Assembly: GCA_965242695.1 (NCBI GenBank)
Contig: CBDESU010000002.1
Span: 416,001 to 480,000, forward strand
Reading direction: 5' to 3'
Length of the DNA: 64,000 nt
Origin: Cenarchaeum sp.
GTDB lineage: Archaea > Thermoproteota > Nitrososphaeria > Nitrososphaerales > Nitrosopumilaceae
A model generated the notes under the pieces. The model did no database searches. It saw nothing but the letters and a program-made list of their open reading frames with translations, and was not told the origin of the DNA. This document shows, in pieces, positions 42,202 to 61,247 of the stretch. Position numbers and translations under genes: made by a program. Every line of letters begins with the position of its first letter. Positions within the stretch are counted from its first letter, which is position 1.

Positions 42202-42509
42202 GGAGGGGGCGGCCGGGGCCTGTGGTAATAAACAAGGACGAGTGATGAGGTGGGCGGGCGCTCGGGGAGACGGCAGGGAGGCCACGGCGGCCCGCCCCGC
42301 AGCAGGGGCGGCGCGGCAGGGGCGGCAGGGGCGCCTGTAGAGGCCGCCGCCCCGCATGCGGCCGTGTCGGCGCACCGACGGGAGGGCGTGCCGCAGCCGC
42401 AGCCGCAGCCTCCGCCGCTCCGGCGGCGCGTGGGCGGCGTCATTCCGGCGGGGCGCAAGCAGGGCTGCGCCTATCGCCGGCTTTGGGGCGGCCGCCGCGG
42501 ACGCCCCCC

Positions 42510-44586: not shown

Positions 44587-47500
44587 TTACCCATCCAAGC
44601 CGCCTCCTACGCCGCCGCCTGCTCCCGAGTAGGGGTTTTTCCCCTCGTCCTTGAGGGACTCGGCGACGGGGTCGTTGAGGGCGACCAGGCAGTCGACAAT
44701 CCACGCGTACTTGGCGCGGTGATCCGGGAGGGCGCCGTCCGGCCGTTCGCATGTCGAGGCCCTGTATAGCAGGTGCGACACCATCTTGACAGTGGCATCG
44801 GAGAGTCCCGATGTGTCGGCCTGCTGCAGCACCTGCCAGAGCCAGCCGATTCCGCGGGAAAGCAGGAGCGCGGGGGGTGCGTCGGCCAAGAGGGATGCAA
44901 CGGCCTCGACCGCATCCCTGTTGCCGGCAAGCGCCGCGCACCACGACGATATCTCGGCGGCAAGCCCCTCGACAACCTCAAACCTGCCCTCGTCACCGGC
45001 GGCTTTCGGGAGGTCGGCGAATATGAGCAGGGCAAGGATTGATTTTTTCACCCGGTTGTTGCGGTAGTGCCAGGCCGCAAGCCTGGGCCCGATCACCCGG
45101 GGCAAGAGGTGTTTCCATGCGGCCAGCAGGCCTGCCCCCCGGCCTGCCCGCATGCCCCAGATGACGGTGTGCCGCATAAAGTACTCCAGCAGCTGGGGGG
45201 CCGCCTCCCACTGGGAGGCAATTTTGTCCAGGATGCTGTCGCGAAGCTCGGGCCGGCTCTCAGTGTGCGACTCTAGAACCCTGAAAAAGTCGGGGCACCA
45301 CATGTTGCGGAACAGCGGATAGGCCCCCCCGTAGGCGCGGCTCTCTTCGAGCTCCTTGAACACGGCGATCGTGTCGTCTAGCATGTCGTCGATGATGCGC
45401 TCCAGCTTGCGCTCGGTGCCGTCGTCTACGGGAGGGACGTCGCGCAGTGCGGGCAGCACGGCTGTGCGCCCCGCCCAGTCAGCGTGCGACCGTCCGTCTC
45501 CATCCTTTTTGTCGGGGAACCGCCGCCTCGCCCTTGCGATGCACTCCAGCACAAGCTTGTCTTCGCGGCCCCAGAGGACGCAAAGCCCGCGCATCAGGGA
45601 TTCAAGCACCGCGTCGTTGCGCGCATCGGCAAACTTGCGGATCGCATTCCTCGCGCCGCGGCCGCGGCCGCCCCGAAGGTAGCAGTGCGGGAGGGCGTGC
45701 GCAACCGGCTGGGCGGCACTGTAGCGATAGGACGGCCCGGCCCGCGGGTCGATCGTGTTCGCCATGCCCTCAAGGTACTTTAGGCATGCGTTGGCCACGC
45801 CCATTTTGACCGCCTCGTCCCAGCGGTGGGCGACCATGGCCCCGGCCAGGCCGGCCCTGCCGTGCGCTGCGCCGTCTTCGTTGTATCTGGGCCGGGACGA
45901 CAGGAAGCCGCCCTCCGCGGCCTGCTCGGCGTACTCTAGCGCCGACTCTATGGTGAAGGCTGGCCCGATCTCGTTTTTTTCGATAAATGTGTTCAACCAC
46001 ATTGCAAAATCCGACGCTTTTTTGCGAGCCGTCGCCCGCCTCTCTGCCTCTTTTTCGCCGTCGGTAGGGAACCGCCCCTTGTCGAAGGCCGTCCCTGTGG
46101 CCCCGCCGGAGGCTTGGGCGGAGGCGTAGTTGTCACTGTGTGCTACTTTTGACCATAATTCGCAACGCCTCCGGCGTTCTTTCATGGTTTTTTCGTCATT
46201 GACGTCGTCCTTGAAGAAAACGGGGACACAGCCGGGGAAGGCCTCGAGGCCAGCCTTCATCCTGCTCCGGGCTTTATCGGGGCCGTCAAGGAGCAGTCGA
46301 GGAGCAAAACCGCTCAGATCACCTAGCTTGCATCGTCCGCTCGCATGCTGGATTGCCAAATCAAATTTTCTCTCTGATATTTCTCTCCCGTCCGACTGCA
46401 TTGCACGTGTGCGGAGAATCTCGATGGCCACCATGTCTGCCCTTAGCCGCTCTGCATCCATTATCCAAAACGCCGGGTTTAGCAGTATTGGCAGGATGGC
46501 CTCTGCGGTCTTGTCCATGTGCCCGAGGGCGACAGTGCAGCAGACGCCTACGACGGCCGCAGAGTTGGTCGGCTGCAGGACCCTGTCAAAGAGGGCCGTC
46601 GCCGCTTCCTTGCCGTTCTTGATCTGGCTATCAAGCCACACCTCCAGCGCCATCAGGGCCGATGCCACCAGGTTGGAGGCTCGGGGGGCGTGGCCGCCCC
46701 ATGCGAACGCGTATTCGTCGCCGTAGACGTAGACGGGGCCGGAATCGAGGCTGACGGTCTGGGGCACCGGGATGCGCGGGGGTTGAAGAGGGCCACCCGC
46801 CTCCCGTGCCCTGCGCCACTCGCCGGTGACGTGGTTCAGCAGATTGTGCACGAGCGCCAGGCCGTGCTCTGGATGGAATGCCAAAAAGGGAAGGAATGGC
46901 CCCTCATGCGGAGAGGGCAGATCGGTCCACCCGTCGTCGCATATTTCCGGTATGTCTTTGAGCGGCCCAAGGGAGTCAGGGCCTGTGCACATGGCGCGGG
47001 ACAGGACGTCGACCGCAACGCCTGGCAGGAACTTGCAGAGGTACGCCCAGCCGTATTCTTTGGTCAATCCCCGCTTGAAGTGCTCATTGCCGACGATGGA
47101 GGGGCTACCCGATATGAACTTCTTTACCAGATCCGGCGCGGAGGCGGACGAGTACATGATTGTTGCAGCGACAAGGCCTTTGATCTCGTCCGATTCGCCG
47201 TAGTCCCGGCCGAGGATCGCCTCGCCGCCGCGCAGCCAGCCCGCATGCTGTACGGCATACCCTGCGATGCGCCTTTTCAGATCGTGGTTCGCTCCGTTGC
47301 GCGACCACCAAGCGGCCGTCCTTATGAACTGGGCAATGGCCGCACCGCCAAGGCCCTCCATGTTGTCCAAGGCGAACGAGAGGACGGGCGCAAACCTCTC
47401 GTCCCTAGGAAGCTTGTAGTACGCAGGATGCAGGCCCGGCTCCACAATGCCATGCTCCTTTGCGGCCAGAGCCCAGTACGGGTTATCCCTCAGAAACGCG

Positions 47501-49599
47501 CTCGGCAGCGCCGCAAGCAGCTTTGCCAAGAGATCCCCGCCGTTCCTCAGAAGGACGCCGGAGATGGTGCCCAGGTTTGACCAGGCGACATCAGAGTCGG
47601 CCGCCCCGAGCAGGCACTCGCGCGCCCAGACGTTCCTGTTCCCTAGATGCCGACAGTCCTCAAGGAGGGCATTCCACTCGTCCACCGAGGCGTCCGCCTC
47701 TAGCATCTTGGCGGCGCATATCCGCAGCGGGCGGACCAGCCTGCGGGTGTTCGCGCTCCCCTCAAAGAGGGAACGGCGCGGCCGCGCCCACTCGATCATC
47801 CTCGCCAGTGCATAGTCCTCGATCACGTCGTGCGCAAAGGCGAGGCGGTTGCCGACTATTCTTGCAAGCCCGTCCGTCAAGAGGCCGTCGACCGCGTCTG
47901 GGTCTAGATCGTGCGGGTCCGCGGGCGGGAGCCCCCTGTACGCCCGCTTCGCCATGTCGACCAGGATCTTTTCCCTGTCTCGCCCATGCCCCCTTCCCTC
48001 GCGCATCCCGACGCGCCGCAGGACTGCCTCGTTCCAGAACAGGTCAAAGAGCCGCCCCTCGCCGACGGCCCCGGGCACGCCCTCGGAGGTGGCTGGCAGC
48101 CATCTTGCGATCATGTCCAAGTACCCCGGAAGTAACAGGAGTGCGCCAAGCCGTCCCCTGATGGCGCCGCCGAGCTGCGGCAGCTGCCGGCACACCTCGC
48201 CGATCTCCTCGTCGGTGAGCGGATCGACTTCCAGAAGGGAGGGGCGGACGCCGCCGCACCACTGCGCGATCGTCCCCGCCACGGCCTTCATCTCCGTGTT
48301 CCTAGATGTCGCTATGATTTTCCACGCCGCGCCTTTGTCCGACGCAGCCGACGCGGTGGCCCTTGCGTTGTAGTCCGATATGGCAACGAGCAGGCCCTTG
48401 GCAACCTGCGCCTTTTTGGGCTCATACGAGACGCGGTCTAGGCCGTCGATGACTACGTACCGATGCGGGGCCGTTCCGTGCGTCTCAAGTATATCCTCCA
48501 GGCTGGAACGCACGCCGAGCGAGGTGAGAAGCGCCTCTGGGCTGCCACTACCACCGAGGTATTCCGTCCCAAAGAACATTACCGTGCCCCTGCCCGACAT
48601 CTTCTCTGCAAACAGCCTGGCAAGGGCAGACTTTCCGGCGAACGGCTCGCCGTGGATTATCGTCACTGCGCTGGTTTTGACAACCTCTTCAAGCCTCTCT
48701 AGGAGGGGGGCGCGATCCAGTGCGACTTTATTCCCTACCGCCTTTCCGATTCCCGCCATGACGGTGCGCGAGTGGGCGTCGAGGCGCCCCGCATCCGCCC
48801 CGGTCCCTGCGTGGCCGGCAAGGTCAAAGGCGGAGAGCCGCCCCCTCAGGGCCGCCGGTCCTATGGATCCGCCCGTTGACGCCAGGTCGGCCGCCACCCC
48901 CCTGAGGGCATCGAAGAGCTTTGCCGCCTCGCCCCCGCCCGGCTCTGCTAGAGCCCTGCGGCACATTTCCACTGCATTGGTGTAGCCGGCGGCGTCAGGG
49001 CCGTCCATGTCGAGCTCGATCAGGTGTAGGAGCCTGAGGAATCTCCACATGTCGTCGTCTGTCGCTTCCGATCCGGAGGACTCTGTGACCGTGCCTTTGA
49101 TGGAGTTGGCAAATTCGAGCCGGTGCTTGGAGTGGCCGCCGTCCTTTAGGCTGCCCCAGAAGGCGGCGCTGTCCGCGCTGTCGCGCGCCATTTCGGGGAC
49201 GAGGAGGCGGTGGCGGTAGGAGTCGCCGGGGACGGGGGACATCACTATCCCGAGCAGGTCGGCGGACCGGTCAAATGCGATGCCCTCGCCGCCGATGAAC
49301 ATCTGCCAGCATTCGGCGATCACGCCCCTGAAGTCGGACGACGCGCCAGGCCGCAGGCCGTGCTTTACCTGGAGCGACAGCTTGTGCGCGCCGCCGTCCC
49401 TGTCGAATGCGACTACGAGGTCGTCGAGGAGGTGACCGGCGGGGCGGCGCTGGAAGCGGACCTCGGTTATTGTGCCGGCCGCCCCCGGCGCGCCTTCCCC
49501 GCATGCCATAGCGGCAAGGTACACCGCCGCTACCTTGCGCTCGTACTCGTACCCCCCGCCCCCCGTGGAGAACGGGCTTGCCTTGGCCCCGGCTCCCAT
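44587..49599 (-). CDS. nuclease-STAND NTPase (Avs-like) with PD-(D/E)xK-type N-terminus
   Basis: GGYEYE...LDDLVV...LQVKH; Walker A GEPFAGKS; Walker B VVIDGLD; FAHDVIEDY; long helical C-terminus. Confidence 0.88.
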   Translation of the reverse strand: MGAGAKASPFSTGGGGYEYERKVAAVYLAAMACGEGAPGAAGTITEVRFQRRPAGHLLDDLVVAFDRDGGAHKLSLQVKHGLRPGASSDFRGVIAECWQMFIGGEGIAFDRSADLLGIVMSPVPGDSYRHRLLVPEMARDSADSAAFWGSLKDGGHSKHRLEFANSIKGTVTESSGSEATDDDMWRFLRLLHLIELDMDGPDAAGYTNAVEMCRRALAEPGGGEAAKLFDALRGVAADLASTGGSIGPAALRGRLSAFDLAGHAGTGADAGRLDAHSRTVMAGIGKAVGNKVALDRAPLLERLEEVVKTSAVTIIHGEPFAGKSALARLFAEKMSGRGTVMFFGTEYLGGSGSPEALLTSLGVRSSLEDILETHGTAPHRYVVIDGLDRVSYEPKKAQVAKGLLVAISDYNARATASAASDKGAAWKIIATSRNTEMKAVAGTIAQWCGGVRPSLLEVDPLTDEEIGEVCRQLPQLGGAIRGRLGALLLLPGYLDMIARWLPATSEGVPGAVGEGRLFDLFWNEAVLRRVGMREGRGHGRDREKILVDMAKRAYRGLPPADPHDLDPDAVDGLLTDGLARIVGNRLAFAHDVIEDYALARMIEWARPRRSLFEGSANTRRLVRPLRICAAKMLEADASVDEWNALLEDCRHLGNRNVWARECLLGAADSDVAWSNLGTISGVLLRNGGDLLAKLLAALPSAFLRDNPYWALAAKEHGIVEPGLHPAYYKLPRDERFAPVLSFALDNMEGLGGAAIAQFIRTAAWWSRNGANHDLKRRIAGYAVQHAGWLRGGEAILGRDYGESDEIKGLVAATIMYSSASAPDLVKKFISGSPSIVGNEHFKRGLTKEYGWAYLCKFLPGVAVDVLSRAMCTGPDSLGPLKDIPEICDDGWTDLPSPHEGPFLPFLAFHPEHGLALVHNLLNHVTGEWRRAREAGGPLQPPRIPVPQTVSLDSGPVYVYGDEYAFAWGGHAPRASNLVASALMALEVWLDSQIKNGKEAATALFDRVLQPTNSAAVVGVCCTVALGHMDKTAEAILPILLNPAFWIMDAERLRADMVAIEILRTRAMQSDGREISERKFDLAIQHASGRCKLGDLSGFAPRLLLDGPDKARSRMKAGLEAFPGCVPVFFKDDVNDEKTMKERRRRCELWSKVAHSDNYASAQASGGATGTAFDKGRFPTDGEKEAERRATARKKASDFAMWLNTFIEKNEIGPAFTIESALEYAEQAAEGGFLSSRPRYNEDGAAHGRAGLAGAMVAHRWDEAVKMGVANACLKYLEGMANTIDPRAGPSYRYSAAQPVAHALPHCYLRGGRGRGARNAIRKFADARNDAVLESLMRGLCVLWGREDKLVLECIARARRRFPDKKDGDGRSHADWAGRTAVLPALRDVPPVDDGTERKLERIIDDMLDDTIAVFKELEESRAYGGAYPLFRNMWCPDFFRVLESHTESRPELRDSILDKIASQWEAAPQLLEYFMRHTVIWGMRAGRGAGLLAAWKHLLPRVIGPRLAAWHYRNNRVKKSILALLIFADLPKAAGDEGRFEVVEGLAAEISSWCAALAGNRDAVEAVASLLADAPPALLLSRGIGWLWQVLQQADTSGLSDATVKMVSHLLYRASTCERPDGALPDHRAKYAWIVDCLVALNDPVAESLKDEGKNPYSGAGGGVGGGLDG

Positions 49600-50791
49600 G
49601 CGAGGGCGTGGCAGGGCGGCTATTTGTGTCTGTTGCGGAGCTCCATTCTGCGGGCGGGGCCTTGCGGGGGGGCGCGAAGCAGAGTTGCGAGGCTTGGAGG
49701 CGGCCGCGCGGTAGCATCCCCGCACGGTTGCGCATGCGTCTCAATTGAACGATGCCCTTGGACATCCCGCGCCGGCTAGCCGCGGCAGAGATAATGGACG
49801 GGGGCCCGTCCCACGAATGGACGGCGTATCAGGGGCATGCCGGCCCGCATCTGCGGCAGAACCGCTTGTCGCACGCACACCCGGCGCTGCCCATGGGCGT
49901 GCGCACGCCGACGCGGTACTCAGCCGACTCCCCCATGGCCTTCCGCGGGGGCCGAACAGGCTGCGCAGGCGCGAGGCACGCCGCGGGCCAGGGCCTTGAC
50001 ATCCCCTCAAGGCTTGGCACACAAGCTGAGCGCGCCGGTGGACGGGTGGGCATCTATCACAACTGAAACGACCGCCTGCCGTGCTCCCGTGTTGTAAGCG
50101 TCCTGCGGGCGCAGTGCAGGCGGGCTACATTGCACCTTGCCTGCCCGTAATACCAGCCGGTAGTATACCGTGGCGTCTCGCAAAAACCTCGGCCGGTGCA
50201 TGGTACCAGCCAGCGTCTGCCAACGGCATGCAGGGGTTGCGGCCGATCTCCCCCCCTCCCATGTGCCCTATTTGGCTCGACAGAGTGCGATGCAGAACGG
50301 CTCAGACCGAAAGATTCAAAAAGTAAGAGCCAGCGCGGCGCTGTGGCGGCAGGGCGACATCAGCCCCTCTGCCCATATCGCTCGACCCTGTCGCCTGCCT
50401 AGGCAAGATGCCAGGCCGAAGGCGCGAGCGCGGCGTCCTAGACGGGGCGCCCAACAGTCATGCAAGCCGCCGGAGACGGTTCGTCAATCAGGGCGCGGTG
50501 GAGTGTGCCCCCGCACAGGACACGTTTTTTTCAGGCAAGGCATGGGCTACAGCGCGACACGGCGCGGTGGCACCTGCCGCCACTGCCATAACGAGTCGGC
50601 CTGGCGGCAGTTCGACTCGTCAGTGCCCATACTACCGCGCATACTTCCAGCCTCCCCGACATGTACACGTCGGGGGCCAGACCGCGCGGCACGGTACAAT
50701 CGCCAACGACGCAGCAAGGCAGATGATGAGAAAAATATAGGTGGGACAATTTGTTTGTCACCATTGCATCATTCAGTCGCAGATGCATGCC

Positions 50792-50814
50792 AAAAAACAC
50801 ATCAAGATGATGTG
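50792..50814 (-). terminator. hairpin plus T-tract downstream of micro-ORF 2
   Basis: 7-bp stem CACATCA/TGATGTG followed by T6 on the minus strand. Confidence 0.7.
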
Positions 50815-50823
50815 GTCATTGGG

Positions 50824-50895
50824 CTACATCATTTTGTAGACTGAGTCGACTACTAGCAACGATGCCTTTGCGCGTCGAATGCGGTATTTTGTCAT
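50824..50895 (-). CDS. 23-aa micropeptide, copy 2 (MTKYRIRRAKASLLVVDSVYKMM)
   Basis: SD-like GGGGGTG at 50905-50911, TTTATATA at 50934-50941, downstream terminator; 16/23 residues identical to copy 1. Confidence 0.75.
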   Translation of the reverse strand: MTKYRIRRAKASLLVVDSVYKMM

Positions 50896-51120
50896 GCGGT
50901 TCAACACCCCCTGCCCCCCGTCGCCCGCCATACTATATAAAGCCTTCAGTGACATCCGGTAAATGGGGATAACCTACGAAAATGAATAAGTCATGACTAT
51001 GGTGGATCAACGAAAATACTACACAACTCAACTATCCTAATGGGCAAGATCGTGTAACGGTTTGTGGATCCCAAAATATAGGTAATTGGTTTAGATAGCA
51101 AATGCATGGAATGCATGAAC

Positions 51121-51264
51121 GGCGGGAATGTGGGGATTGCTGGGAACATCCGAGGGATCTGGGTGGCGGGAATGTGGGGATTGCTGGGAACATCCGAGGG
51201 ATCTGGGTGGCGGGAATGTGGGGATTGCTGGGAACATCCGAGGGATCTGGGTGGCGGGAATGTG
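51121..51264 (+). repeat. perfect 44-bp tandem repeat x3.3, G-rich
   Basis: ggcgggaatgtggggattgctgggaacatccgagggatctgggt at 51121, 51165 and 51209, plus 12 nt at 51253. Confidence 0.95.
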
Positions 51265-51744
51265 ATCATGTTGAAAATGCCGGAAACGTGGGTGACGGGG
51301 CTACCGCGTGCGGCGCAGGCAGGATGCCGTGCGGTGACAGGCACCCGCACATCACGGCCGCATTGCACAGGACGCGCGGAACGTCCGAGCGCCTCGCCGG
51401 GAACACCGGCAATGCGCTGCCACAGGCAGCGCGGAGATGTGCCGGTGCCTGCAGCAGCCGCGAGCCGCCCGCTCCCAGCCGTCGGCACAAATCCGCAAGC
51501 TATTAAGGTTCGGCAGGACGGGCGCCGGCAATGCTCGTCTCTACAGTCCAAGCGTCCACAGGAGGCAATAACTCACTGGCCGCCCATCTCAAAGGCCGCC
51601 CCGAGGCAGGGAGCTGCTCGAGCCGCCGGCCGAAATGGCGCGCGATGGGTAGCCTCAGCGGGTGCGGCGGAAGTCTGCCGCGGATGCGGCCGAGCGAGGG
51701 GGGCCTGGCGGCCGCGCCGCCGGCCGGGTGCGGGTGACGAAGGC

Positions 51745-52755
51745 GTGGATACGTGGACGGATTACATTCACAGGGGGTCGCGGGAGGCGCGCGTGCGCAG
51801 CCTGGGCTTTGGCGGCAGGGAGATTTTAACGCCGGCCTATTTTCCGTCCGTTTCAAGCCTGTCTCTGAGAATGCCGTGTCGGTCCGCGGTAAAAGTGTGC
51901 AAGGACGCAGGCTATCCGCAGATGCTGGTATCCGCGTATGATCTAGGCGGGATGGGCGCGCCAATCCTCGAGATGCTGTGCGAGTACGCCGAGAAAGGCG
52001 TCCTGCTTGTGGACAGCGGCGCGTTCGAAGCACACTACTCGGGCGGGAAGTGGGGCTTTGACCGCTACGAGCGGTGCATCAAGGCAATCCCCTGCTCCAT
52101 CTACGCAAGCTACGACACAATGCCCAGCGCCCAAGACACCTACGACGCCATGCTGGACAGCGCATGCGACTCTCTTGGACGCTCCTCCGGCATCCGCCCC
52201 GAAAGCAGATGCATGGCAATACTGCACGGGAGTAGGCCCGACGAGACGGTCAGGATGGCAAAGGACATCAGCGCGGGCGGCGAGCCGCGCATGTATGCGG
52301 TGCCCGAGAGGGAGATGGGGAGCACTATAGGCAGCAAGATCAGGACCACTGCAAAGATACGCAGAATACTGACCGGCCGGGATCCCGACAACATACTGCA
52401 CGTGCTAGGATGCGGCGACCCCGTGCTGATGGCCTTGCTGTCGTACGCCGGCGCAGACACCTTTGACAGCGTCGACTGGTCGAGGTGGGCGATCGATCCC
52501 TCGACGTACGAGTGGGTCGGCATTGACCGCCTCGAGTTCATAAGGTGCGAGTGCCTTGCATGCCTGGATGGCGACACAACCCGCATGCAGAGTCGGGCGC
52601 TAGAGCACAACCTGCTGTTCTACAGCGAATTCATGGCGCGGCTGAGGGACGCGATTCTGGCGGACCAGGACTTCGGCTCGATCGGACTCGGCGTTGACAG
52701 CGAGGCACTGGCACGCCTGTCCAAGTGCTTTAGGGACGGGGAGGCTCCCGCATGA
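51745..52755 (+). CDS. tRNA-guanine transglycosylase-like protein (Cap10/DpdA-like)
   Basis: TPAYFP, VDSGAF, HVLG, GADTFDS, CECLAC...HN zinc site; no PUA domain; start uncertain. Confidence 0.85.
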   Translation: MDTWTDYIHRGSREARVRSLGFGGREILTPAYFPSVSSLSLRMPCRSAVKVCKDAGYPQMLVSAYDLGGMGAPILEMLCEYAEKGVLLVDSGAFEAHYSGGKWGFDRYERCIKAIPCSIYASYDTMPSAQDTYDAMLDSACDSLGRSSGIRPESRCMAILHGSRPDETVRMAKDISAGGEPRMYAVPEREMGSTIGSKIRTTAKIRRILTGRDPDNILHVLGCGDPVLMALLSYAGADTFDSVDWSRWAIDPSTYEWVGIDRLEFIRCECLACLDGDTTRMQSRALEHNLLFYSEFMARLRDAILADQDFGSIGLGVDSEALARLSKCFRDGEAPA

Positions 52756-53230
52756 CGGCCACGTCCGGCGCCTCCCGCCTAGGCGCATGCTCAGCGGCGA
52801 GCGGGGGCGCGGCGCCGAAAAGAGGCGGCAGGGGGGCGCGGCGCGGCGCTTCGCATGTAGGCAGGCGGGGGCGGCCGAATGCCGGATCGCGGAGGTCGCG
52901 GTCGGGGCGGAGTTCGGGCCGGCCGCCAGGCGGCCGAGGGGGCGCACCTACAGCGGGAGGCCGAAGGAAGCAAGGCTCCGGCCGCGCTCGAGTGCGGATG
53001 CGGCAGGGGGGCGCGGGCGGCAGGGCGCTTTGGAATGAGGGAGCGGGAAAGAGGGGGCGGCCGTCGGATCCGGTGTGCGCTGGTGCGGCGGCCGAGTGCC
53101 ACTATTGCACGGCGCTGCCCGCCCTGTGGAAGGGATCGCTCGCCGCAAGGAGGCAAGAAGCATCCCAGGGATGCGGGCGCGAGAGGGGGCACCGGCGATC
53201 TGTCCGGAGCCGACCAAGGAGGGGGCGGCT

Positions 53231-53851
53231 ATGAGGATCGTCTGCCTCACGTCGGGTGGGGTCGACTCTACAGTCATGCTTCACGTGCTATCAAGGCGCA
53301 ACGAGGTGGTTCCGCTGTTCGTCGACTACGGGCAGAGTGCCGCGCGCCGGGAAAAAAGGGCGGCCGTCGCGGCGTGCGCGCCGCTGCGGCTGCGGCCCGC
53401 AGTGGTCGGAATCCGCGGGCTGCGCGCTACACGCGCCGCGTGGGCGCACGAGGCGGCGGGCAAGCGCCAGGCCCCCGAGGCCCCCGGCGTGACCCCCTCC
53501 AGCCCGTACTTTCCCAAGCGGAACATGCTCCTGCTGTCCGCATCGGCGGCATTCGCGAGGCTCAACTCGTGCAGGGTTGTCGCGATCGGGGTCATTGGGG
53601 GGACGGGGTACGGGGACCAGACGGAGGGGTTCGTCAGCAGCGCACAGTCGGCGCTCTCGGCCGACGGCGACATTGCCGTAATGGCCCCCCTTGAGGGCAT
53701 GTCCAAGATAGAGGTTGCGCGCCTCGCAAGGAGCAGCGGCGTAGCGCTGGGAGCCACATACTCGTGCGACAGGGGAGGGGAGAGGCACTGCGGCAGATGC
53801 GACGGCTGCAAGGATCGGCGCGCGGCGCTGAACGAGGCGAGGCGGGCATGA
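53231..53851 (+). CDS. QueC-like protein (7-cyano-7-deazaguanine synthase family)
   Basis: SGGVDS, DYGQ, FPKRN, TYSC...HCGRCDGC. Confidence 0.92.
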   Translation: MRIVCLTSGGVDSTVMLHVLSRRNEVVPLFVDYGQSAARREKRAAVAACAPLRLRPAVVGIRGLRATRAAWAHEAAGKRQAPEAPGVTPSSPYFPKRNMLLLSASAAFARLNSCRVVAIGVIGGTGYGDQTEGFVSSAQSALSADGDIAVMAPLEGMSKIEVARLARSSGVALGATYSCDRGGERHCGRCDGCKDRRAALNEARRA

Positions 53852-54399
53852 TCCGGGCGCCCCTGCATCGGCGGGCTGCCAGCGCACGCGCTGACTTGGC
53901 GAAAGGTCCGGGCCCGTGATCCCGGTGGCGGGAATCGCTCTACGTACGAGGGGCAGAAGGGCCAGAACGAACCCCGGCGCAGCCCCATGCGTGTGGCTGG
54001 CGCGGACAGGCGGCCATGCAGGTGTGGGGAACGGCTTGAGAGATCCAGAAGGTTGGTGTGCAAGACGCATGGTGTTTGATGCGCCCGCATCGACAGAGAT
54101 CAAATCGCGGCGGGCCTTGCCGCGCCCGGCGCCGTATGCGGCGATCCGGAGCGGCGGGCCCAAGCGGAGGAAGGGCCGGCATTCCTGGCCGCTGCGCCCC
54201 TCCGGCGCCACGGAGCCACTGCGCCAGCGCTACAAGGAGAAAAATCGAGCATGCTGGGCGTCACGGCGTAGGCATCGCCGCAAGGCCGATGGGCAAGGGG
54301 GTTCGGCAAGACAGGCACGGGCACCGTCCTAGCCGTGTCGGGCCCAGGCACGGCATCATGTGGGCGTCCCGCCGCACATGCCGCCCTTCCCGGTGTGCA

Positions 54400-54885
54400 C
54401 TACTCCAATGCCTTGGCGATCTGCTTAGCGTTCCACGGTATGACCTTGTCTCCGTGCTTGCTGATCGCGGTAGGCACCTTGTGATCCACGTCGCTGTGCA
54501 TTCTCACCCCTACGACTTTTTTGCCTTGCCTGTGCGCCTCTTCAATCTCCCATGCGACCGATTTGCTCTTGTGGGTGTGCTCCCCTATGGCCACTATCAT
54601 GGCGCTTGTCTGCTCTAGTTTTTCTGCCACCTTTTGCTTCCACTTTGTCTCGATCCGCTCCTTGACGGAGTAGTCCCTAAAACGGAACGGGAATCTCTCA
54701 TCCTTTGCCTGGCTGGCCAGCAACCGAACCTGGCGCTTGTCCTCATCGACATCAAAGCTTACGAAGACATTGCGCTGCTCAGAGACCCTCTTCCGGGTGG
54801 CATCCTCCCTTGCCCTGACTTCGCGGCGCAGCTCATCGGCGCTCTTGGCATGAAATTGGTCAAGGCCTAGGCCACCTGCGCCCAT
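54400..54885 (-). CDS. TIR-domain protein (DUF1863/ThsB-like) with Gly-rich N-terminus
   Basis: NVFVSF, DYSV, SKSVAWEIEEA (catalytic Glu); TTAAAAA about 24 nt before ATG. Confidence 0.88.
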   Translation of the reverse strand: MGAGGLGLDQFHAKSADELRREVRAREDATRKRVSEQRNVFVSFDVDEDKRQVRLLASQAKDERFPFRFRDYSVKERIETKWKQKVAEKLEQTSAMIVAIGEHTHKSKSVAWEIEEAHRQGKKVVGVRMHSDVDHKVPTAISKHGDKVIPWNAKQIAKALE

Positions 54886-55223
54886 GCGCCGGGCCGACCA
54901 AAGGCCGGTTTTTAAGTCTTGCCATCGGCCTGTCAGGATCTAGGCCCCACGCATGACGCCTGCGACAGGGCCTGCGGCGAGGCGAAGAGCCACCGCGAGC
55001 GGCAGTCCAAGGCATGGCAGCCTGCCGCCGCGGAATCGGCATGCCTGCCGCCGCTTGAGGCCCAGCTCCCTCACGCGGCAGCTTGCACCGGCATCCTGTT
55101 GAACCACTCTCCCTCATACATCACGGATCCACAACCCAGCCGACGCCGTACGGTAGCGGGCGCCTTGTTAGCGACGGCCCAGCATTTTGCAAGGCCCGCG
55201 GGGTGGCCCAGGAAGCAGGCGCC

Positions 55224-55745
55224 TCAGGGAGTCGCCCCTGCAGACAAAAGACTGGGGTACAGGGCGTATATTACGTAAAGCGCATACAGAATGATGAAGA
55301 TTGCGGGCGTCACCAGCTCGCCCATTGTCAACTCCCTGTATCTAGAGCTCCCTCGCTTTAGAATGTTCCATTCCCTGCTGTAGAGGTCTAGGGGCAGGGT
55401 TTTCTCGACATCTAATGCGACGCTCCACTTTGCCTTGGCCAGCGATCGATACGACAGGATCGTGACCAGCCAGTTGCCTCCAAGCACAAGCCCGATTACG
55501 CCCGCTGGCACCCAAAGGGGAGATGGCCCGCTCAGGGGAAACAGCCCCGCCAGCATCGCCAGTGCGGCCGCAAGGGCCGCATTGGCGCTGAGGTAGAAGT
55601 TGTTGGTGTGGGCGCGCAGCCGTTCTCGGCGGCCTATGTCGTCGACGTACATGCGGTACTGCTCAAACGCCCTGTCTTCGTCTCCCGCCCTGCGTCCTGC
55701 CGCATCCCGCGCGGACGCGTCTGGCTTTGGTGGATCGCCGGGCAT
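55224..55745 (-). CDS. membrane effector-like protein (RipA/SLATT-like)
   Basis: FEQYRMYV...RAHTNNFYLSAN, 2 TM, W...SYRSL..AKW...EKTLP...EW, C-terminal TM; starts 9 nt after the TIR stop. Confidence 0.75.
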   Translation of the reverse strand: MPGDPPKPDASARDAAGRRAGDEDRAFEQYRMYVDDIGRRERLRAHTNNFYLSANAALAAALAMLAGLFPLSGPSPLWVPAGVIGLVLGGNWLVTILSYRSLAKAKWSVALDVEKTLPLDLYSREWNILKRGSSRYRELTMGELVTPAIFIILYALYVIYALYPSLLSAGATP

Positions 55746-55754
55746 GAAACAACA

Positions 55755-56231
55755 CTACGATAGCTCTTGGCAGATTAGATCGACGTCCCAGTTGATGACC
55801 TTCAAGCCCTTTAGTGCGGACGGAAGGCCGTGTCCTGCATCGGGGCAGAGTCGAGCCCCCAGAATTTTCATGTTCAGGGCCTGGGCCGCTTTGATCTCCC
55901 AGTCGACTACCGTGCTCTGGTGCGTCCACTCCCCTACGACCACAATCACTGCCCTGGCCTGCGACACCTTCTTGCGGATTTCCTCCCGAAGGTCTGGAGA
56001 CGGCAGCTCTCCTGCAGGATAGTCCCTGTATGCGAATGCAAGCCGCTCGTCTTTAACCTCCGAGACAAGCCGCCTTACGTCCCGCTCGTCGCGCGCATCA
56101 AAGCTGAGAAAGACAGGCCTTCTGGACGCGCGCTTGCGCGCATCCTCCGCGCGCGCGTCAACCACGGCGCCTGCCTCCGCCCCGCCCCTATCCGGCTGGG
56201 CGTTGTTCTGATCGCCCCCAGGTCTCCCCAC
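55755..56231 (-). CDS. TIR-domain protein (DUF1863/ThsB-like)
   Basis: PVFLSF, STVVDWEIKAA; CTATAAG about 23 nt before GTG. Confidence 0.88.
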   Translation of the reverse strand: MGRPGGDQNNAQPDRGGAEAGAVVDARAEDARKRASRRPVFLSFDARDERDVRRLVSEVKDERLAFAYRDYPAGELPSPDLREEIRKKVSQARAVIVVVGEWTHQSTVVDWEIKAAQALNMKILGARLCPDAGHGLPSALKGLKVINWDVDLICQELS

Positions 56232-56718
56232 GCCGGCAGGCCGGCAGACCCCCCTTATAGACGATGGTCACGGTAGGGGCGTGCTTCCGATGGGCGGACG
56301 CGCCAATTCTGGCTCCAAGAAGTCCATGTGAGCGTTCGTTTGCAATGTCCAAAGCGAGACCGGCACGTCACGATGCCCTGTGCCTGAAGGTGTGCTGGCC
56401 CGCATTGTCGCAAACCGCCTGCTCTCGCCTACGAGCCTAAGTCGAAGGTAGGACGCAGCAGCAGCCACATCCCAGAAACGCTCCGAAGGCCTAGACCGTA
56501 GCGTGGATTATAGTGTCGGCGGATGGGCGTCGCGGTCTAGGCAAATGCAGTCAGACAGCCCAGGTTCTAGCCCATGTGCATAGTTTGCTGGTGCCGGCGC
56601 GACGCAGCGGGCCCTCTCGCGCCGATTTTGAGCGGTTCAAGCGCCGGCGCGCCGGCAACCACGCGTTGCCTTGCCGCGTTCGGTCGGGATGCCCAGTGCC
56701 AAATGCTGTAAAGCATTT

Positions 56719-57807
56719 TCAGAGCCCAGCTTCCGCATCCCACAGTTGAACATATTCTAATACCCTGTTCGCGATTTTGTGAGATGTGTCTGAATCAAGG
56801 CTTTCCTGTATGACGAGTATCCTGCCACGTCCGCTGCCGTCGTCGTTGCGCAGAAAAAGGTCGCTTGTACTGCCAGGTGCATCAATCAAGACAATATCCG
56901 TGTATTCTGGCATGCTCTTTTCGATTGTGTTTAGAGCGTCGGGATCCACGACAATGAGCAGCTTTCCAGCGTCAAGCAATTCTTTGAATTTGGCTGTAAT
57001 GTACACGTCTCGGAGCGAAAAGCCTACCACAATGCATGCGTCAGAAAGCCCCAGGGCGGTGGAAAACGCCTCGAATGTGGTGTTATAGGGTTCGTCGTCA
57101 ATGAACTTGGGGGATCTTGACGGGTATATGAGCAGATTGCCGTAGTTTTTGTCGCGGGACAGTTCCTCGCTTTCGTTTTTCACTATTCCACCCATCGCAA
57201 GGTTGCTCCTCCACGTAAGCGATCCGTGCAGCTTGTACAGGCGGACACGGCGGGTGCCCTCCTGTTGATCTTCGTCGCTGAACACATTCCCCGGCGGGTA
57301 GGGCCAGCCAGTCCAGACATACTTCCCGCCCGAAGGCACAAACCCGTCCACTAGCTCGATTTGGGGGTCTGCGATGTCGCAGTACTGCTCCACGCTTCGA
57401 TCATAGTTGGTGGTAAAGATGTTGACGGTTTTGCTCAGCCCTTCCAGCATGGCAACCAGCGGGCCAAGCGTGTGTTGAAGGGCGTCGTTATACTCGTGGT
57501 TCCACGCATAGGCCTCGTATAGCTCGTTTACTAGAACATGGTATGCGTTATATATAATATTAATCTCATTTTTAACTTGATTGTTGTACTCGGCATAAAA
57601 TCTCCCCCCGTCGTTCTGTGCCAGCGCGGCTAGATCCTCCACTACGCTGAAAACGGCCTCGACATCCTCGTGCTGGGGTGAAGACAGTACAGCATGCCAG
57701 ATGTCGCCCCGCTCTGTCTGTTGGAGCAGGGCATCTTTGAAGGCCTTGGTCGTCGGCTTGCCGTACGGAGCAGACGCACCCGCGCCTAGGAACAACGAAG
57801 CGTTCAC
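56719..57807 (-). CDS. SIR2-like (SIR2_2) putative NADase
   Basis: LFLGAGAS, FTTNYD, YKLHGS, VGFSLRD; start GTG 57807 or ATG 57831. Confidence 0.9.
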   Translation of the reverse strand: MNASLFLGAGASAPYGKPTTKAFKDALLQQTERGDIWHAVLSSPQHEDVEAVFSVVEDLAALAQNDGGRFYAEYNNQVKNEINIIYNAYHVLVNELYEAYAWNHEYNDALQHTLGPLVAMLEGLSKTVNIFTTNYDRSVEQYCDIADPQIELVDGFVPSGGKYVWTGWPYPPGNVFSDEDQQEGTRRVRLYKLHGSLTWRSNLAMGGIVKNESEELSRDKNYGNLLIYPSRSPKFIDDEPYNTTFEAFSTALGLSDACIVVGFSLRDVYITAKFKELLDAGKLLIVVDPDALNTIEKSMPEYTDIVLIDAPGSTSDLFLRNDDGSGRGRILVIQESLDSDTSHKIANRVLEYVQLWDAEAGL

Positions 57808-59073
57808 GAATCGGCGGGCGGGGGGCGGCATATCAAGGTTCGCTCTGGCGTGACCGTCCCAATGGCAGGAGTGCAAGCCCCTAGCAACATGTGCGCCGCC
57901 CTGCGCGCTTCGACGGCGCCATGGGCTGTCGGACGCAGGCCCCTAGCCTTAGGTTCAGGGCGCTGCGGCCAGGCTTGGGCATCCTGCACCCGCCTCCTGC
58001 GCCGGCGCCTCGCGCATAGATCGGCAGGGGCGGGGTCATGCCGCCCGCTGCGGGCCCGTGCGAGGCCTGCAGGGTGGGACCGCAGGGGACGAACAATTGA
58101 CGGCCGCAGGGCGGCGTCGACGCCTCACCGCTCCCACGCCCCGCGGGCGCTCTGCCTGCGCAAAAAGCGGCGGACATCCATGCGGGTGCCCAGGCGCACA
58201 ATGCACGGCCATCAAGGCCGCCTCCATTTGAACGAAAAATTAGTAATTCTAATCAATAATAGTGCTTAAATACAACCTGGATGGAACCCGATGCATGATC
58301 GAGATGGCAGCGGCAGGATTGTTGCTCTGCACAAACGGGCTTGCCGCATTGGAGCCGCATGTGCAGCAGATTCTGGGCGTAATTGCTGGCTGGGATGCCC
58401 ATACGCTTGCCGGCAACCTGGCAGTGGCGTGGATGCTCTGCCGCGCCTGCAGGAAGACGCTGGGGATGGTGCGCCGCTGCGCCTTCTGTGCGCGCCGCTC
58501 GTCAGGCGCCAGGCGCGCCCGACGCCACGCCGGATGCGGGCGTGGGAAGAGGCGGCTCCCGCGATTCAAGAAGAGGCGGAGGAACGTCCCCGGCTCCAAC
58601 AGGGATCGTCGCGGCAAAGGCGGCGGCCGCGTCGCGTGACGCGTGCCATCGCCTTTTTTGTTCATGGCGGACGGGAAGAGTCCCCCGGCACGCAGCCCGC
58701 CGACGGCTGGACGGATCGCGGTTCCGCAGCGGTTCGCAGGACGACTCCTTGCAAGGAGGCGGGGGATGACGGCCCGGGCCTGCCTGCAGGGCCCGCGGGG
58801 ACGGCAAGGGCGCGGATGCGCAATGCAGTTCCAATCTGGCCCGAAGGCGTGCTGTGGGGGCGGCAATCGAACGTAGCGGCAGTCCGGCGGTGGCGATATG
58901 CCCCTTGTGATCTGCCCCCTGTCGGGGATGCCGCTGGTGGCGCCGATCGAAGCGGCTATAACGAGTGCGTGGGGGACTGGGCAGAAGGCTGAAATGATCG
59001 CGATAGAATGCTGCGGCGTCCAAGCGAGCAGGGGGCGTGACCCGCACGGTCTGGATCCCTGTTCGCTACCGTC

Positions 59074-59682
59074 GTGGTGGAGCCGGTCGCAGAAGAGCCT
59101 GCCATAGGACTGCCCGTCATAGACACCGAGTGCGGGCGCTGGATCCACGGGATCAACCGCATGGCGGCAGAGGCAGAGGCCGGCGGCGACAGCTTTCTAG
59201 GGGGCGGCTTTGTGCAGGGTCCCAGCATGGCCATTGCGATCGACAAGCCCCGCGTCTCTGCCAGCACGTCAATCGACGCGGGCGGGCGGATAGAGCACAT
59301 GAGCGAGTACAGGGGCGTGGACGAGTCGGGGGCGGTGTGCTTTCCGCTCATCCGCCACCGCCGTCGCGCTGGGACCGTGATCAAGATTGCGGGAGAGGTG
59401 ATGCTGCGGCACGGGTACGTCGGCAGGTCCAGGGTGGTCATGAACATCGCCTGCGCGCGCAAGAGCCGCATCATGACGGCTAAGGGGTACTGCTTTTACC
59501 GGATGTTGGAGAGCGTCGACAGCAAGGCCTGCCTTGGCTTCAACACGCAGCACGCCTGGGTGTTTACAGGCAGGGAGTTGAGGGACGGTGGCGAGGACAT
59601 TGCAGGGAGTCGAGCAGACGCATTTTTGACGCTGTACCGGGAGCAGGGCGAGTGGGTCAGGGAGGACGGGACGCCCGTGTGA
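59074..59682 (+). CDS. hypothetical protein, possibly 5'-truncated
   Basis: 202-aa protein-like ORF with no clear promoter. Confidence 0.4.
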   Translation: MVEPVAEEPAIGLPVIDTECGRWIHGINRMAAEAEAGGDSFLGGGFVQGPSMAIAIDKPRVSASTSIDAGGRIEHMSEYRGVDESGAVCFPLIRHRRRAGTVIKIAGEVMLRHGYVGRSRVVMNIACARKSRIMTAKGYCFYRMLESVDSKACLGFNTQHAWVFTGRELRDGGEDIAGSRADAFLTLYREQGEWVREDGTPV

Positions 59683-60014
59683 CGGCGCCCGCGCTACTAG
59701 CCCGGGCGCTGGCGGGGCGGCGTGCTAGCATGTGGGGGGGCGCAGGGGCAGGGCTCCGCGAGCACTCCGATCCTGCCCCTCTATCAGGCGGTCTTCCTGT
59801 CCATGAGGTAAAGTTGACCGTGGTCCATAAAATGTCGAGGTAGGGCATTCGCAGAGGGCCCGTAGCTACAGGCAGGTAGTGCCAAGGATCCCGCGTGTAC
59901 GGTTGCCCGCAGCGTCAGCAGGCGCGGCGGGCCTGGTCACTAAAAAAATTACTAAAAGGATTAATTAGCAAGATCTTATTTAGCAACCTTCCACCCGAAT
60001 CAGCGTAAGGCAAA

Positions 60015-61247
60015 ATGGACAGAAGGAAACCGCGCGGCACGGCAGCTCCAAGCAGGAGCGAGCTTCGCCTGCTGGTGCTCAGAGCGCTTGCTGGGGGCAG
60101 CCCTGTCGGGCTGCCGAACCTGGCAGCCGGCACGGCCGTCTCGTGCTCTGGGCAGGATGCGGGAACCCTCAACGCCTACCTGGCGGGGGCGGGAAGAAAG
60201 AAGATGGACGGAATCGTAGAGCTGGCCGCCAACGACTTGGCGCGGGCGGGGCTTGTGCGACTCACGCCCGCCAACGACATGCGGATCAGCGCGGACGGAA
60301 GGGCGCTGTTGGAGGCAACGGACGAGACGCTAGGCAGGACGAATGCGGCGGGGGGACGAAGCAGGATGCGGTCGGAGATAACCGATGCGCTTCTATGCGA
60401 GCTGAGCCCCGCGTATCAACGGTGGCAGAGCGGGCCGCCGCCGGCCGCGGTGGATGAGCTGCCCCGCAAGGCGGAGGGAAGACCCGAGGAGGCATGCGGG
60501 ATATTCGCCGCGATCGACATGCTTGGAACCAAGGAAGCGTGGAGGAGACGCGGTCAGATAGAACTCCAGAACTTGTGGAAAGATTTGGTGGACTATACTA
60601 GGCAGGTTCTGCGGCCCGAGGACGGGTTTGACGTCACGACATGGTCCGACACGATAGTGGTCATGGGAAGCGGCCGCACCACCGCCGACCTCTTGAAGGC
60701 GTTCGGCATGGCGTCGTGGCGGATAGTGGCCAAGAGCATGCAGGACAACGTGCCGGTGCGCGGCTGCGTTGCGGAGGGGGGCTACTGCACGGGCACCGAG
60801 AGCCTGGTCCTCGGTGAGGCCGTGGACGAAGCCATCGAGTGGTACGAGCGGGCGCAGTGGATCGGAATAATGGCGACGCCGAGCGCTGTGTCTGTACTGA
60901 ATAAAATGGAAAAAATGGATGCGGTGGGGCTAGACGCCATGCACGAGTACTATGCAAGGTACGACATACCGTCGAAGACGGGCGCGGATTCGGCATGGGC
61001 CGTCAACTGGCCGAGGCAGTGCGAGGCGACCGGCGAGGGCGGAGGGGCGGAGGGAATGATGCAGATCGTCAAGGACGGCTTGAGAAGGTCTCCTGACGAA
61101 AGGGCGGAGCGTAAGTGGCTTAACACGGGAAAATTCTGCGACAGTGTGATCCGCGGCTGGGATCCGTACAGGAAGTGGGAATCGCCTGGGCGTCCTGAAT
61201 ATAACCTCGGCTGGTCCGGGTCCGCGAGCTTGGCGGCTAGTTCCTAG
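60015..61247 (+). CDS. Mrr_N-like winged helix fused to a class III nucleotidyl cyclase-like domain
   Basis: PSRSELRLLVLRAL...LARAGLV...RISADGRALL; then IDMLGTK, WSDTIV, VRGCVAEG, GEAVDEA...E. Confidence 0.65.
   Translation: MDRRKPRGTAAPSRSELRLLVLRALAGGSPVGLPNLAAGTAVSCSGQDAGTLNAYLAGAGRKKMDGIVELAANDLARAGLVRLTPANDMRISADGRALLEATDETLGRTNAAGGRSRMRSEITDALLCELSPAYQRWQSGPPPAAVDELPRKAEGRPEEACGIFAAIDMLGTKEAWRRRGQIELQNLWKDLVDYTRQVLRPEDGFDVTTWSDTIVVMGSGRTTADLLKAFGMASWRIVAKSMQDNVPVRGCVAEGGYCTGTESLVLGEAVDEAIEWYERAQWIGIMATPSAVSVLNKMEKMDAVGLDAMHEYYARYDIPSKTGADSAWAVNWPRQCEATGEGGGAEGMMQIVKDGLRRSPDERAERKWLNTGKFCDSVIRGWDPYRKWESPGRPEYNLGWSGSASLAASS

Follow-up and report, generated by a model that had tools for sequence, protein, structure and literature searches.

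A window of 64,000 nucleotides from the archaeon Cenarchaeum sp. (contig CBDESU010000002.1, positions 416,001 to 480,000 of the forward strand) was analysed with regard to a five-gene locus at positions 51745–56231, which comprises a TGT-family gene, a QueC-family gene, two genes for small Toll/interleukin-1 receptor (TIR) domain proteins (TIR1 and TIR2), and a gene for a membrane protein of the 8xMP family. Judging from homology and structure modelling, we consider it likely that this locus encodes a Thoeris-type TIR signalling defence which employs the ancillary proteins of type IV cyclic oligonucleotide-based antiphage signalling systems (CBASS), and in which the QueC protein would deazaguanylate glycine 2 (Gly2) of TIR1. 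Such a system is already known in outline: Thoeris operons with cap9, cap10 and cap11 are noted, on the basis of genomics and AlphaFold3 only, in the accessible text of a preprint (Yirmiya et al., bioRxiv 10.64898/2025.12.03.692087, December 2025), and the window holds a rearranged copy of it that lacks Cap11. To this picture, sequence comparison adds a largely archaeal clade with an 8xMP protein and a TGT of retained zinc site, as well as a convergent variant with two TIRs and no Cap11. Further additions are the joint loss of the N-terminal tail and the TGT-family neighbour, and a predicted QueC-TIR interface at cleft positions of Cap9. Family placement, synteny, the tail, the absence of a cGAS/DncV-like nucleotidyltransferase (CD-NTase), the intact motifs and the predicted QueC-TIR1 interface are computed results, which are described in the following.

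Composition of the locus

All five genes are intact open frames. The Cap10-like TGT-family gene (51745–52755, forward strand; GTG start, 336 amino acids) lies within a longer open frame beginning at 51106. The gene for the Cap9-like QueC-family protein, a predicted ATP-dependent ligase (53231–53851, forward strand; 206 amino acids), begins with an ATG behind GGAGG. The two are separated by a G+C-rich spacer of 475 bp (52756–53230), which sits where related loci hold an OGG-like cap11 gene. Both genes converge on three genes of the reverse strand in the order TIR2, 8xMP, TIR1. TIR1 (54885–54400; ATG start, 161 amino acids) is a ThsB-type TIR with the N-terminus MGAGGLG, and TIR2 (56231–55755; GTG start, 158 amino acids) is a divergent paralogue with the N-terminus MGRPGG. 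The membrane protein, the presumed effector (55745–55224, 173 amino acids), lies between them; the stop codon of TIR2 precedes its start by 10 nucleotides, and a gap of 338 bp separates it from TIR1. This layout, with the catalytic glutamate retained in the TIRs, had been proposed by a reading of the sequence alone (henceforth the sequence-only reading) and is borne out.

Pfam ThsB_TIR matches TIR1 and TIR2 with E-values of 2.4e-17 and 5.4e-11, respectively. The two proteins share 39% identity, and TIR1 is 57% identical to the QueC-linked TIR of L010 (loci used for comparison are designated by L and a number). In the TIR tree, TIR2 falls into the same 8-row clade as TIR1 (Shimodaira-Hasegawa-like approximate likelihood ratio test, SH-aLRT, 95), with an end branch of 1.69. 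The catalytic glutamate, E113 of TIR1, belongs to a WEI motif; all 47 aligned members of the family share it, as do 20 of 20 proteins in a second comparison, and it aligns with the corresponding glutamate of solved ThsB-type TIRs.

For both TIR genes an A/T-rich box lies at a distance that fits leaderless transcripts, the transcript start itself being inferred: TATAA at 56259–56255, 28 nucleotides before the GTG of TIR2 at 56231, and TTAAAAA at 54915–54909, 30 nucleotides before the ATG of TIR1 at 54885, within the promoter region 54886–54920 (reverse strand) as read from sequence. Upstream of TIR2 there is an in-frame stop at 13 codons and no start codon in between. The Met-Gly starts suggested for the two TIRs thus gain support from these boxes, with one reservation for TIR2: an internal GTG at codon 23 could in principle serve as an alternative start, and TIR2 would then have no tail.

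Conserved linkage of QueC, TGT and TIR genes

A scan from the TIR side, with one genome per species and with neighbours identified by tblastn with the window proteins, yielded 36 related loci. These are mostly archaeal (Nitrososphaerota, Bathyarchaeota, Thermoplasmatota, Thor-, Had- and Pacearchaeota); the others belong to Brocadia, Pirellulales, Chloroflexota, Bacteroidota and Myxococcota. A QueC gene lies upstream of the TIR gene in 20 of the 36 loci and is accompanied by a TGT gene in 19; in the twentieth, L019, the contig ends within QueC. The 19 loci share the co-directional order TGT, gap of at least about 750 bp, QueC, TIR. In all 19 the gap holds an open reading frame of 232–273 amino acids, which was identified as an Ogg-HhH, Cap11-like protein in the four cases scanned (4/4). 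An 8xMP homologue stands next to the TIR gene in 30 of the 36 loci, and the two-gene module of TIR and 8xMP recurs alone (L021, L037–L041).

The same link was recovered independently from the QueC side, in a metagenome scan in which the best 80 of 408 relatives were examined. A TIR gene directly downstream of QueC was found in 51 of these 80, a CD-NTase in 1, and a TGT gene without visible TIR or CD-NTase in 8, four of those with less than 1 kb after QueC. QueC stood alone in the other 20, which are probably canonical QueC. The association that the sequence-only reading had drawn from a single locus therefore recurs in other genomes, in 20 of 36 loci seen from one side and in 51 of the best 80 seen from the other.

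A related cassette was noticed in L071 and L076, where TGT, Cap11 and QueC are followed by a non-TIR protein of 326 amino acids (L071:3477–4457) which starts with MGYGKQ and carries an HPHYDH metallo-beta-lactamase-like motif; in L071 a membrane protein and a second HPHYDH-type protein come after it. This protein may represent another class of substrate for deazaguanylation. Since the cassette precedes an MG-starting protein that is not a TIR, deazaguanylation may serve beyond nucleotide-signalling enzymes.

Family placement of the QueC- and TGT-family proteins

The QueC-family protein matches Pfam QueC (7.3e-33) and the PADLOC model QueC PDLC00911 (3e-31). The TGT-family protein matches Pfam TGT (1.8e-7; 31 bits against a cut-off of 26.3) and, as its sole PADLOC match, TGT PDLC00913 (3.3e-19). 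The search output names these two PADLOC models only QueC and TGT; we take them to be type IV CBASS models. With 92.7 bits, the QueC-family protein lies under the cut-off of 150.3 for canonical preQ0 synthases (NCBIfam QueC equivalog TIGR00364). The closest solved structures are Cap9 for QueC (9nto_B, 8.3e-17, followed by QueC 2pg3 with 1.6e-5) and Cap10 for TGT (9ntn_A, 4.5e-7, followed by the archaeal tRNA-guanine transglycosylase, arcTGT, 1iq8 with 2.2e-5).

Phylogenetic trees were computed together with comparators, namely type IV CBASS plasmid loci of Pseudanabaena (L046) and Bacillus mycoides (L048), a metagenomic type IV CBASS (L082), TIR loci on Rhizobiaceae plasmids (L047, L051), a canonical queCDEF cluster (L049) and a haloarchaeal plasmid TGT (L050). 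In the QueC tree (careful method, 48 rows), the window protein belongs to a 32-row clade of the TGT-Cap11-QueC type (ultrafast bootstrap, UFBoot, 98; SH-aLRT 92), whose members are TIR-linked except for L071 and L076. The Cap9 proteins of CBASS form a separate clade (98/94), which joins the 32 rows at 97/89, apart from canonical QueC. The TGT tree, for which the quick method only was used, splits 24 Cap10-like rows from arcTGT and the haloarchaeal plasmid TGT by a branch of 4.63 (SH-aLRT 100); the pair of CBASS Cap10 proteins lies within an unresolved fan of TIR-linked rows. As judged from these trees and matches, the island QueC and TGT are not housekeeping enzymes. They group with Cap9 and Cap10, away from housekeeping QueC, from arcTGT and from the haloarchaeal plasmid TGT with its BREX/HNH neighbourhood, as the sequence-only reading had anticipated. 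No phage TGT matched the island TGT.

The catalytic motifs are intact. Like Cap9 of type IV CBASS, the island QueC has kept SGGxDS, YGQ..E, RN, Y-x-D and four zinc cysteines, and SGGxDS and Y-x-D are invariant in 20 of 20 QueCs; the cysteine of the canonical YPDC motif is replaced by glutamine throughout the island QueC clade. In Cap9, Y-x-D stacks on the base and forms hydrogen bonds with it (Wassarman et al., bioRxiv 10.1101/2025.04.06.647259). The island TGT retains the equivalents of Cap10 residues D73, S74, D122, H226 and D248 (numbering after Wassarman et al., checked on the alignment). These residues are general to TGTs and therefore indicate an intact pocket, not Cap10 identity. A zinc motif, CxCxxC...HN, is kept in the window TGT and in 18 of 19 genome loci, and is missing in L042, L046, L047 and L048; Cap10 has been described as lacking it (Wassarman et al., bioRxiv 10.1101/2025.04.06.647259).

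A fused form of the TGT was observed on the Rhizobiaceae plasmids. There, a Cap10-like TGT carries an N-terminal TIR domain (L047:4620–6023 and L051:4608–6011, 467 amino acids) and is followed by Cap11, Cap9 and an MGGG-tailed TIR, with DUF4231, TRAFs-binding and carbohydrate-kinase genes upstream.

The N-terminal tail of the TIR proteins

Every QueC-linked TIR of the genome loci (20/20) starts with M[GSAT][GSA] and continues with some 35 further residues ahead of the RNVFISF strand of the TIR fold. The same kind of start is found in 50 of 51 QueC-linked TIRs from metagenomes, a count that leans towards the pattern, as start picking favoured pattern-fitting starts where available, with a composition still far from chance. 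In these tails, position 2 is occupied by G in 46 cases and by S in 4; at position 3 there are 48 G and 2 A, and positions 4–7 are mostly G or S. The resulting consensus of the family, MGG[GS][GS]GG, corresponds to the substrate N-terminus of type IV CBASS, where the motif M(G/S)G(G/S)GG belongs to the CD-NTase and its Gly2 bears 7-amido-7-deazaguanine (Wassarman et al., bioRxiv 10.1101/2025.04.06.647259); here it is borne by the TIR. The type IV CD-NTases of three CBASS loci start with MGGSGGG, MGGSGGN and MGGSSGG. The comparison with CD-NTase N-termini that the sequence-only reading had called for thus shows a match for TIR1 and for the family. MGAGGLG is within the range of observed tails, whereas MGRPGG of TIR2 is outside it, with R3 and P4 in 0 of 50 metagenome tails. 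TIR1 therefore appears the likelier substrate.

The expected extension ahead of the TIR fold is likewise present in TIR1. Its structure model (mean predicted local distance difference test, pLDDT, 70.6) displays a disordered tail (residues 1–15), a helix of low confidence (16–33) and the alpha/beta TIR fold from residue 38 on, and solved ThsB-type TIRs align only from profile position 37–40 on.

TIR relatives without a TGT-family neighbour begin at the TIR fold and have no tail. This applies to a Chloroflexota group and to a Nitrosopumilus group (L021, L023, L025) whose members nest beside the window TIRs. In three places on the tree, a change of the tail coincides with a change of the TGT-family neighbour.

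A short variant was seen in L028, L033 and L040, which are small metagenome-assembled genomes. Here, a divergent TGT-like protein of 293–296 amino acids is encoded directly upstream of an MGGG-tailed TIR and an 8xMP protein (L028:7102–8895, L040:7177–8947, L033:1260–3050), with neither QueC nor Cap11 seen nearby in the locus. The TGT-like protein of L028 matches Pfam TGT with 4.4e-5, which is below the cut-off. L028 and L040 also carry a gene for a CARF/HFX_2341-wHTH regulator in divergent orientation. The window TGT, when used as a query, detected no TGT-like gene in the small metagenome-assembled genomes of L021, L022, L028, L033 and L040, and this query misses the divergent TGT-like genes that three of the five do have.

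Predicted interface between QueC and TIR1

Co-folding of QueC with TIR1 resulted in interaction scores (interaction prediction score from aligned errors, ipSAE) of 0.78, 0.78 and 0.77 in three runs, whereas the best of three controls scored 0.00. At least 83% of the contacts are common to the runs, and the pLDDT of the partner is 72 or higher. The pass mark is reached by 58 of 80 solved complexes and by 2 of 110 mismatched pairs, figures that are rough here because of author-made alignments. On the side of TIR1, all confident contacts are within residues 13–37, i.e. in the extension. On the side of QueC they involve residues 19–24, 115–116 and 147–169. By alignment, QueC residues 20 and 116 correspond to M29 and L104 of Cap9, and the equivalent of S135 is two residues away from a contact. 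Defence by type IV CBASS was lost when these three cleft residues, M29, L104 and S135, were mutated jointly (Wassarman et al., bioRxiv 10.1101/2025.04.06.647259). The model, which had been suggested as a check by the sequence-only reading, therefore supports a binding of TIR1 by QueC via the Cap9 cleft positions.

CD-NTase, Cap11 and supply of the deazaguanine base

Type IV CBASS operons contain a CD-NTase. None is visible in the window, as had been noted from the sequence, and none was found in the whole genome (95.99% complete): a profile search with SMODS PF18144 gave no match at E<=0.1, and a search with the type IV CD-NTase protein of L046 gave none either. A remnant of Cap11 was sought with 14 Cap11-like proteins by tblastn, which gave no match in the spacer with an E-value under 3.1 and none in the window under 0.04. 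The best match of a Cap11 profile to the six-frame translation of the window (E 0.46) lies outside the spacer. Type IV CBASS defence did not depend on Cap11, which only about a third of the operons contain (Wassarman et al., bioRxiv 10.1101/2025.04.06.647259).

Elsewhere in the genome there are a housekeeping QueC (157 bits) with a FolE-like frame beside it, an arcTGT (256 bits), and QueD, which makes a supply of the deazaguanine base plausible.

The 8xMP membrane protein

The membrane protein matches Pfam 8xMP PF24838 with 1.6e-24 and is the sole copy in the genome. It has hydrophobic segments at residues 50–75, 77–99 and 138–170. No solved relative was found at E<=10, no second Pfam family in four members, and no ligand-binding domain was recognised; full-text literature searches gave no paper on the 8xMP family among those listed. 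In a protein atlas a SLATT-named cluster scored 0.93, just behind 8xMP clusters with 0.94. A link between 8xMP and SLATT was dropped, as the probability from an hhalign comparison with two SLATT-like CBASS effectors stayed under 1%, no better than reversed controls.

Relation to known systems

The closest relatives in the literature are the Thoeris operons with Cap9, Cap10 and Cap11. As far as the accessible text of the preprint goes, they combine the same elements, the genes of a TIR and an effector being adjacent to QueC-like and TGT-like ones, and for a Pseudomonadales example AlphaFold3 gave an interface predicted template modelling score (ipTM) of 0.79 for TIR-Cap10 and 0.62 for TIR-Cap9, as for the CD-NTase (Yirmiya et al., bioRxiv 10.64898/2025.12.03.692087). 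The layout described there is also that of two loci on Rhizobiaceae plasmids, L047 and L051. In contrast, the locus of the window is archaeal, convergent and without Cap11, and has two TIRs and an 8xMP effector; its TGT keeps the zinc motif that the bacterial copies in L042 and L047 lack. The idea of a deazaguanylated TIR, as put forward by the sequence-only reading, came out favourably in each check that could be computed. However, it is not new, being in print as a genomic and AlphaFold3 observation in the accessible part of that preprint. A survey of the QueC family, in its accessible text, reports a CD-NTase adjoining 67% of Cap9-cluster genes and makes no mention of TIRs (PMC13329287).

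With type IV CBASS, the locus shares Cap9- and Cap10-like proteins, an M(G/S)G(G/S)GG-type tail followed by a helix, and the predicted docking at Cap9 M29/L104. It differs from it in that the signalling enzyme is a TIR and not a CD-NTase, in the exchange of K154 for histidine, and in the retained zinc motif. The gene order differs as well, being TGT-(Cap11)-QueC-substrate in the family of the window and QueC-TGT-CD-NTase in type IV CBASS. In common with Thoeris types I–XI there is a small ThsB-family TIR with its catalytic glutamate adjoining a membrane protein. The ancillary QueC and TGT set the window apart from these types, and 8xMP is not named among the verified ones in the accessible sources.

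QatABCD, in which QatC deazaguanylates QatB according to the accessible text of its description, resembles the locus, as interpreted here, in that an enzyme of the QueC family modifies the N-terminus of a protein. The QatC models match the island QueC weakly (PADLOC 2.6e-4; NCBIfam 21 bits, cut-off 280), and a PADLOC scan of 16 island proteins gave no QatA, QatB or QatD match. Housekeeping QueC and arcTGT of the archaeosine pathway have the same folds and catalytic motifs, while the island copies are in other clades.

Proposed mechanism

Based on this dataset, we infer the adduct, the role of the TGT, the signal molecule, the effector role of the 8xMP protein and the defence function itself as follows. 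TIR1, and possibly TIR2, would be translated from leaderless mRNA, and removal of Met1 would expose Gly2. The Cap9-like QueC would activate 7-carboxy-7-deazaguanine with ATP, the base being drawn from the archaeosine pathway of the host, and would ligate it to the alpha-amine of Gly2 while gripping the amphipathic helix (residues 16–33) between the tail and the fold of the TIR. The modified tail would then be bound by the Cap10-like TGT in its nucleobase pocket, so that the TIR is kept primed or silent; the TGT may hand the TIR on to a target. Upon virus infection, the TIR would convert NAD+ into a signal derived from ADP-ribose, which would open a membrane oligomer of 8xMP and thereby stop the cell or the virus.

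For the TGT of the mostly archaeal clade, a more active part is conceivable, although we regard it as improbable: it may be a working transglycosylase which inserts the deazaguanine-tagged TIR, via N9 of the base, into tRNA or viral nucleic acid, such that covalent tethering and clustering of the TIR would be the activating step and the Cap11 of sister loci would undo the link. This idea derives from the retention of the Asp/His pair and of the CxCxxC...H zinc site of nucleic-acid-binding TGTs.

A number of points weigh against the proposed deazaguanylation of TIR1. Full-text searches found no experimental study of a TIR-linked QueC/TGT system among the papers listed. The branches of the window proteins are long in every tree (1.11 to 1.69), lengths that are inflated in the QueC and TGT trees by a letter make-up unlike that of the other rows. 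The TIR-effector module lies on the opposite strand, unlike the 19 co-directional loci, and Cap11, which belongs to the Cap9/Cap10/Cap11 Thoeris operons, is missing. Because Cap11 is gone, the module inverted and a second TIR added, the arrangement of the window is regarded as derived. The equivalent of K154, which is lysine in both CBASS Cap10 proteins, is histidine in 21 of 22 TIR-linked TGTs including that of the window, and arginine in one; the pocket chemistry may thus differ. MGAGGLG and MGRPGG are poorer in glycine than the consensus, and the TIR transcript starts are deduced from box spacing. The link between tail and neighbour consists of only two or three independent contrasts (sign test, p=0.5), and a Fisher test (p 2.7e-6) treats related loci as independent and so overstates the case. 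In L028, L033 and L040 an MGGG tail goes with a divergent TGT-like gene and no QueC was found in the locus by tblastn; a tail is therefore not always paired with a dedicated QueC. In the co-fold, residues 1–12 of TIR1 are not confidently placed, and the result may owe something to the solved Cap9-CdnD complex.

Alternative explanations

Several of these points would also be expected of a rearranged, decaying copy, that is, of descendants of a TGT-Cap11-QueC-TIR-8xMP system that no longer work together. The G+C-rich spacer in place of Cap11, the module inverted relative to 19 of 19 loci, the end branch of TIR2, the atypical tails, and the occurrence of the system in 0 of 4 same-genus genomes all fit this explanation. 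We nevertheless think it unlikely. Five frames have stayed open with SGGxDS, the zinc cysteines, Y-x-D, the Asp/His pair of the TGT and the glutamate of the TIRs in place, the loss of Cap11 is tolerated by type IV CBASS (Wassarman et al.), the letter make-up accounts for part of the branch lengths, and the co-fold passed its controls.

QueC and TGT might, on the other hand, control the TIR by mere binding of tail and helix, with no covalent deazaguanine mark. In the co-fold, it is the helix and not Gly2 that makes the confident contacts, and the loci with a tail and a TGT-like neighbour in which no QueC was found (L028, L033, L040) would agree with it. Yet an ATP-binding SGGxDS and a base-binding Y-x-D would be unneeded for binding alone, and both are invariant in all 20 QueCs; in addition, all 20 tails from the genome loci and 50 of the 51 from metagenomes open with a small residue, as required by the chemistry of Cap9 (Wassarman et al.). 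A purely non-covalent control accordingly strikes us as rather improbable.

Less probable still is that the TIRs are effectors which deplete NAD+, with 8xMP serving as a sensor or being a partner unrelated to them. Both TIRs are small ThsB-family proteins of a single domain, and the recurrence of the TIR and 8xMP pair alone (L021, L037–L041) corresponds to the sensor-plus-effector layout of Thoeris. The idea is prompted by some bacterial TIRs that act in this way, according to the accessible text of Yirmiya et al. (bioRxiv 10.64898/2025.12.03.692087), and by the lack of a recognised signal-binding domain in 8xMP.

That QueC and TGT are a Dpd-like or tRNA-directed deazaguanine pair acting on nucleic acids, and mere neighbours of the TIRs, is highly improbable: the TGT does retain its catalytic Asp/His pair, along with a zinc motif that crystallised Cap10 lacks, but trees and best matches lead to Cap9 and Cap10, the order TGT-Cap11-QueC-TIR is conserved across phyla, no phage TGT was matched, and QueC scores below the NCBIfam QueC cut-off.

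Implications

Protein deazaguanylation has been shown for two substrates only, the CD-NTase of type IV CBASS and QatB. If the proposed modification of TIR1 is true, the TIR would be a third substrate, and one priming chemistry would serve both main arms of nucleotide-signalling immunity, archaea included. The ratio of TIR-linked to CD-NTase-linked cassettes, 51 to 1 among the nearest QueC relatives (best 80 of 408), supports a widespread use, and the surveyed loci span Nitrososphaerota, Bathyarchaeota, Thermoplasmatota, Thorarchaeota, Planctomycetota and Rhizobiaceae plasmids. The variants in L028/L033/L040 and in L071 point to a broader use of the cassette. The archaeal TGT, being less remodelled, may help to identify the target of Cap10. 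The practical gain from the window itself is modest, as it provides one more copy of a system that is in print.

Genomic surroundings

The locus is accessory, given that the TIR family was not found in the four same-genus genomes (0/4) and has one weak occurrence among 40 relatives. No tRNA was found in the window and no Rfam family within 49000–60500; a sigma-70 promoter and terminator scan of the window gave nothing useful, the model being unsuited to archaea.

The surroundings are an archaeal defence island. Directly downstream of TIR2 in window coordinates lies a SIR2_2 gene (56719–57876, reverse strand), whose product matches PADLOC SIR2 with 3.2e-20 and scores 38.7 bits with NCBIfam SIR2_antiphage, under the cut-off of 500. 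It was considered as a ThsA-like effector and rejected, as a homologue occurs in 0 of the 36 related loci; for the same reason it is probably a separate defence gene. A restriction protein of the GmrSD_N / NsnA-like type is encoded at 35692–36834 (reverse strand; PADLOC NsnA, 1.4e-69). Two adjacent giant NTPase/HEAT proteins of 1,669 and 1,712 amino acids (37226–42235 and 44587–49725, both reverse strand) match the PADLOC models PDC-M54A and Avs4; the former has a TIR_2 domain at residues 347–445 in addition to HEAT repeats. A third HEAT/PDC-M54A-like protein is found at 61298–63952. Finally, a perfect tandem repeat of 44 bp (51121–51264, 3.3 copies, 100% identity) lies in an apparently non-coding region of 2 kb upstream of the TGT gene.

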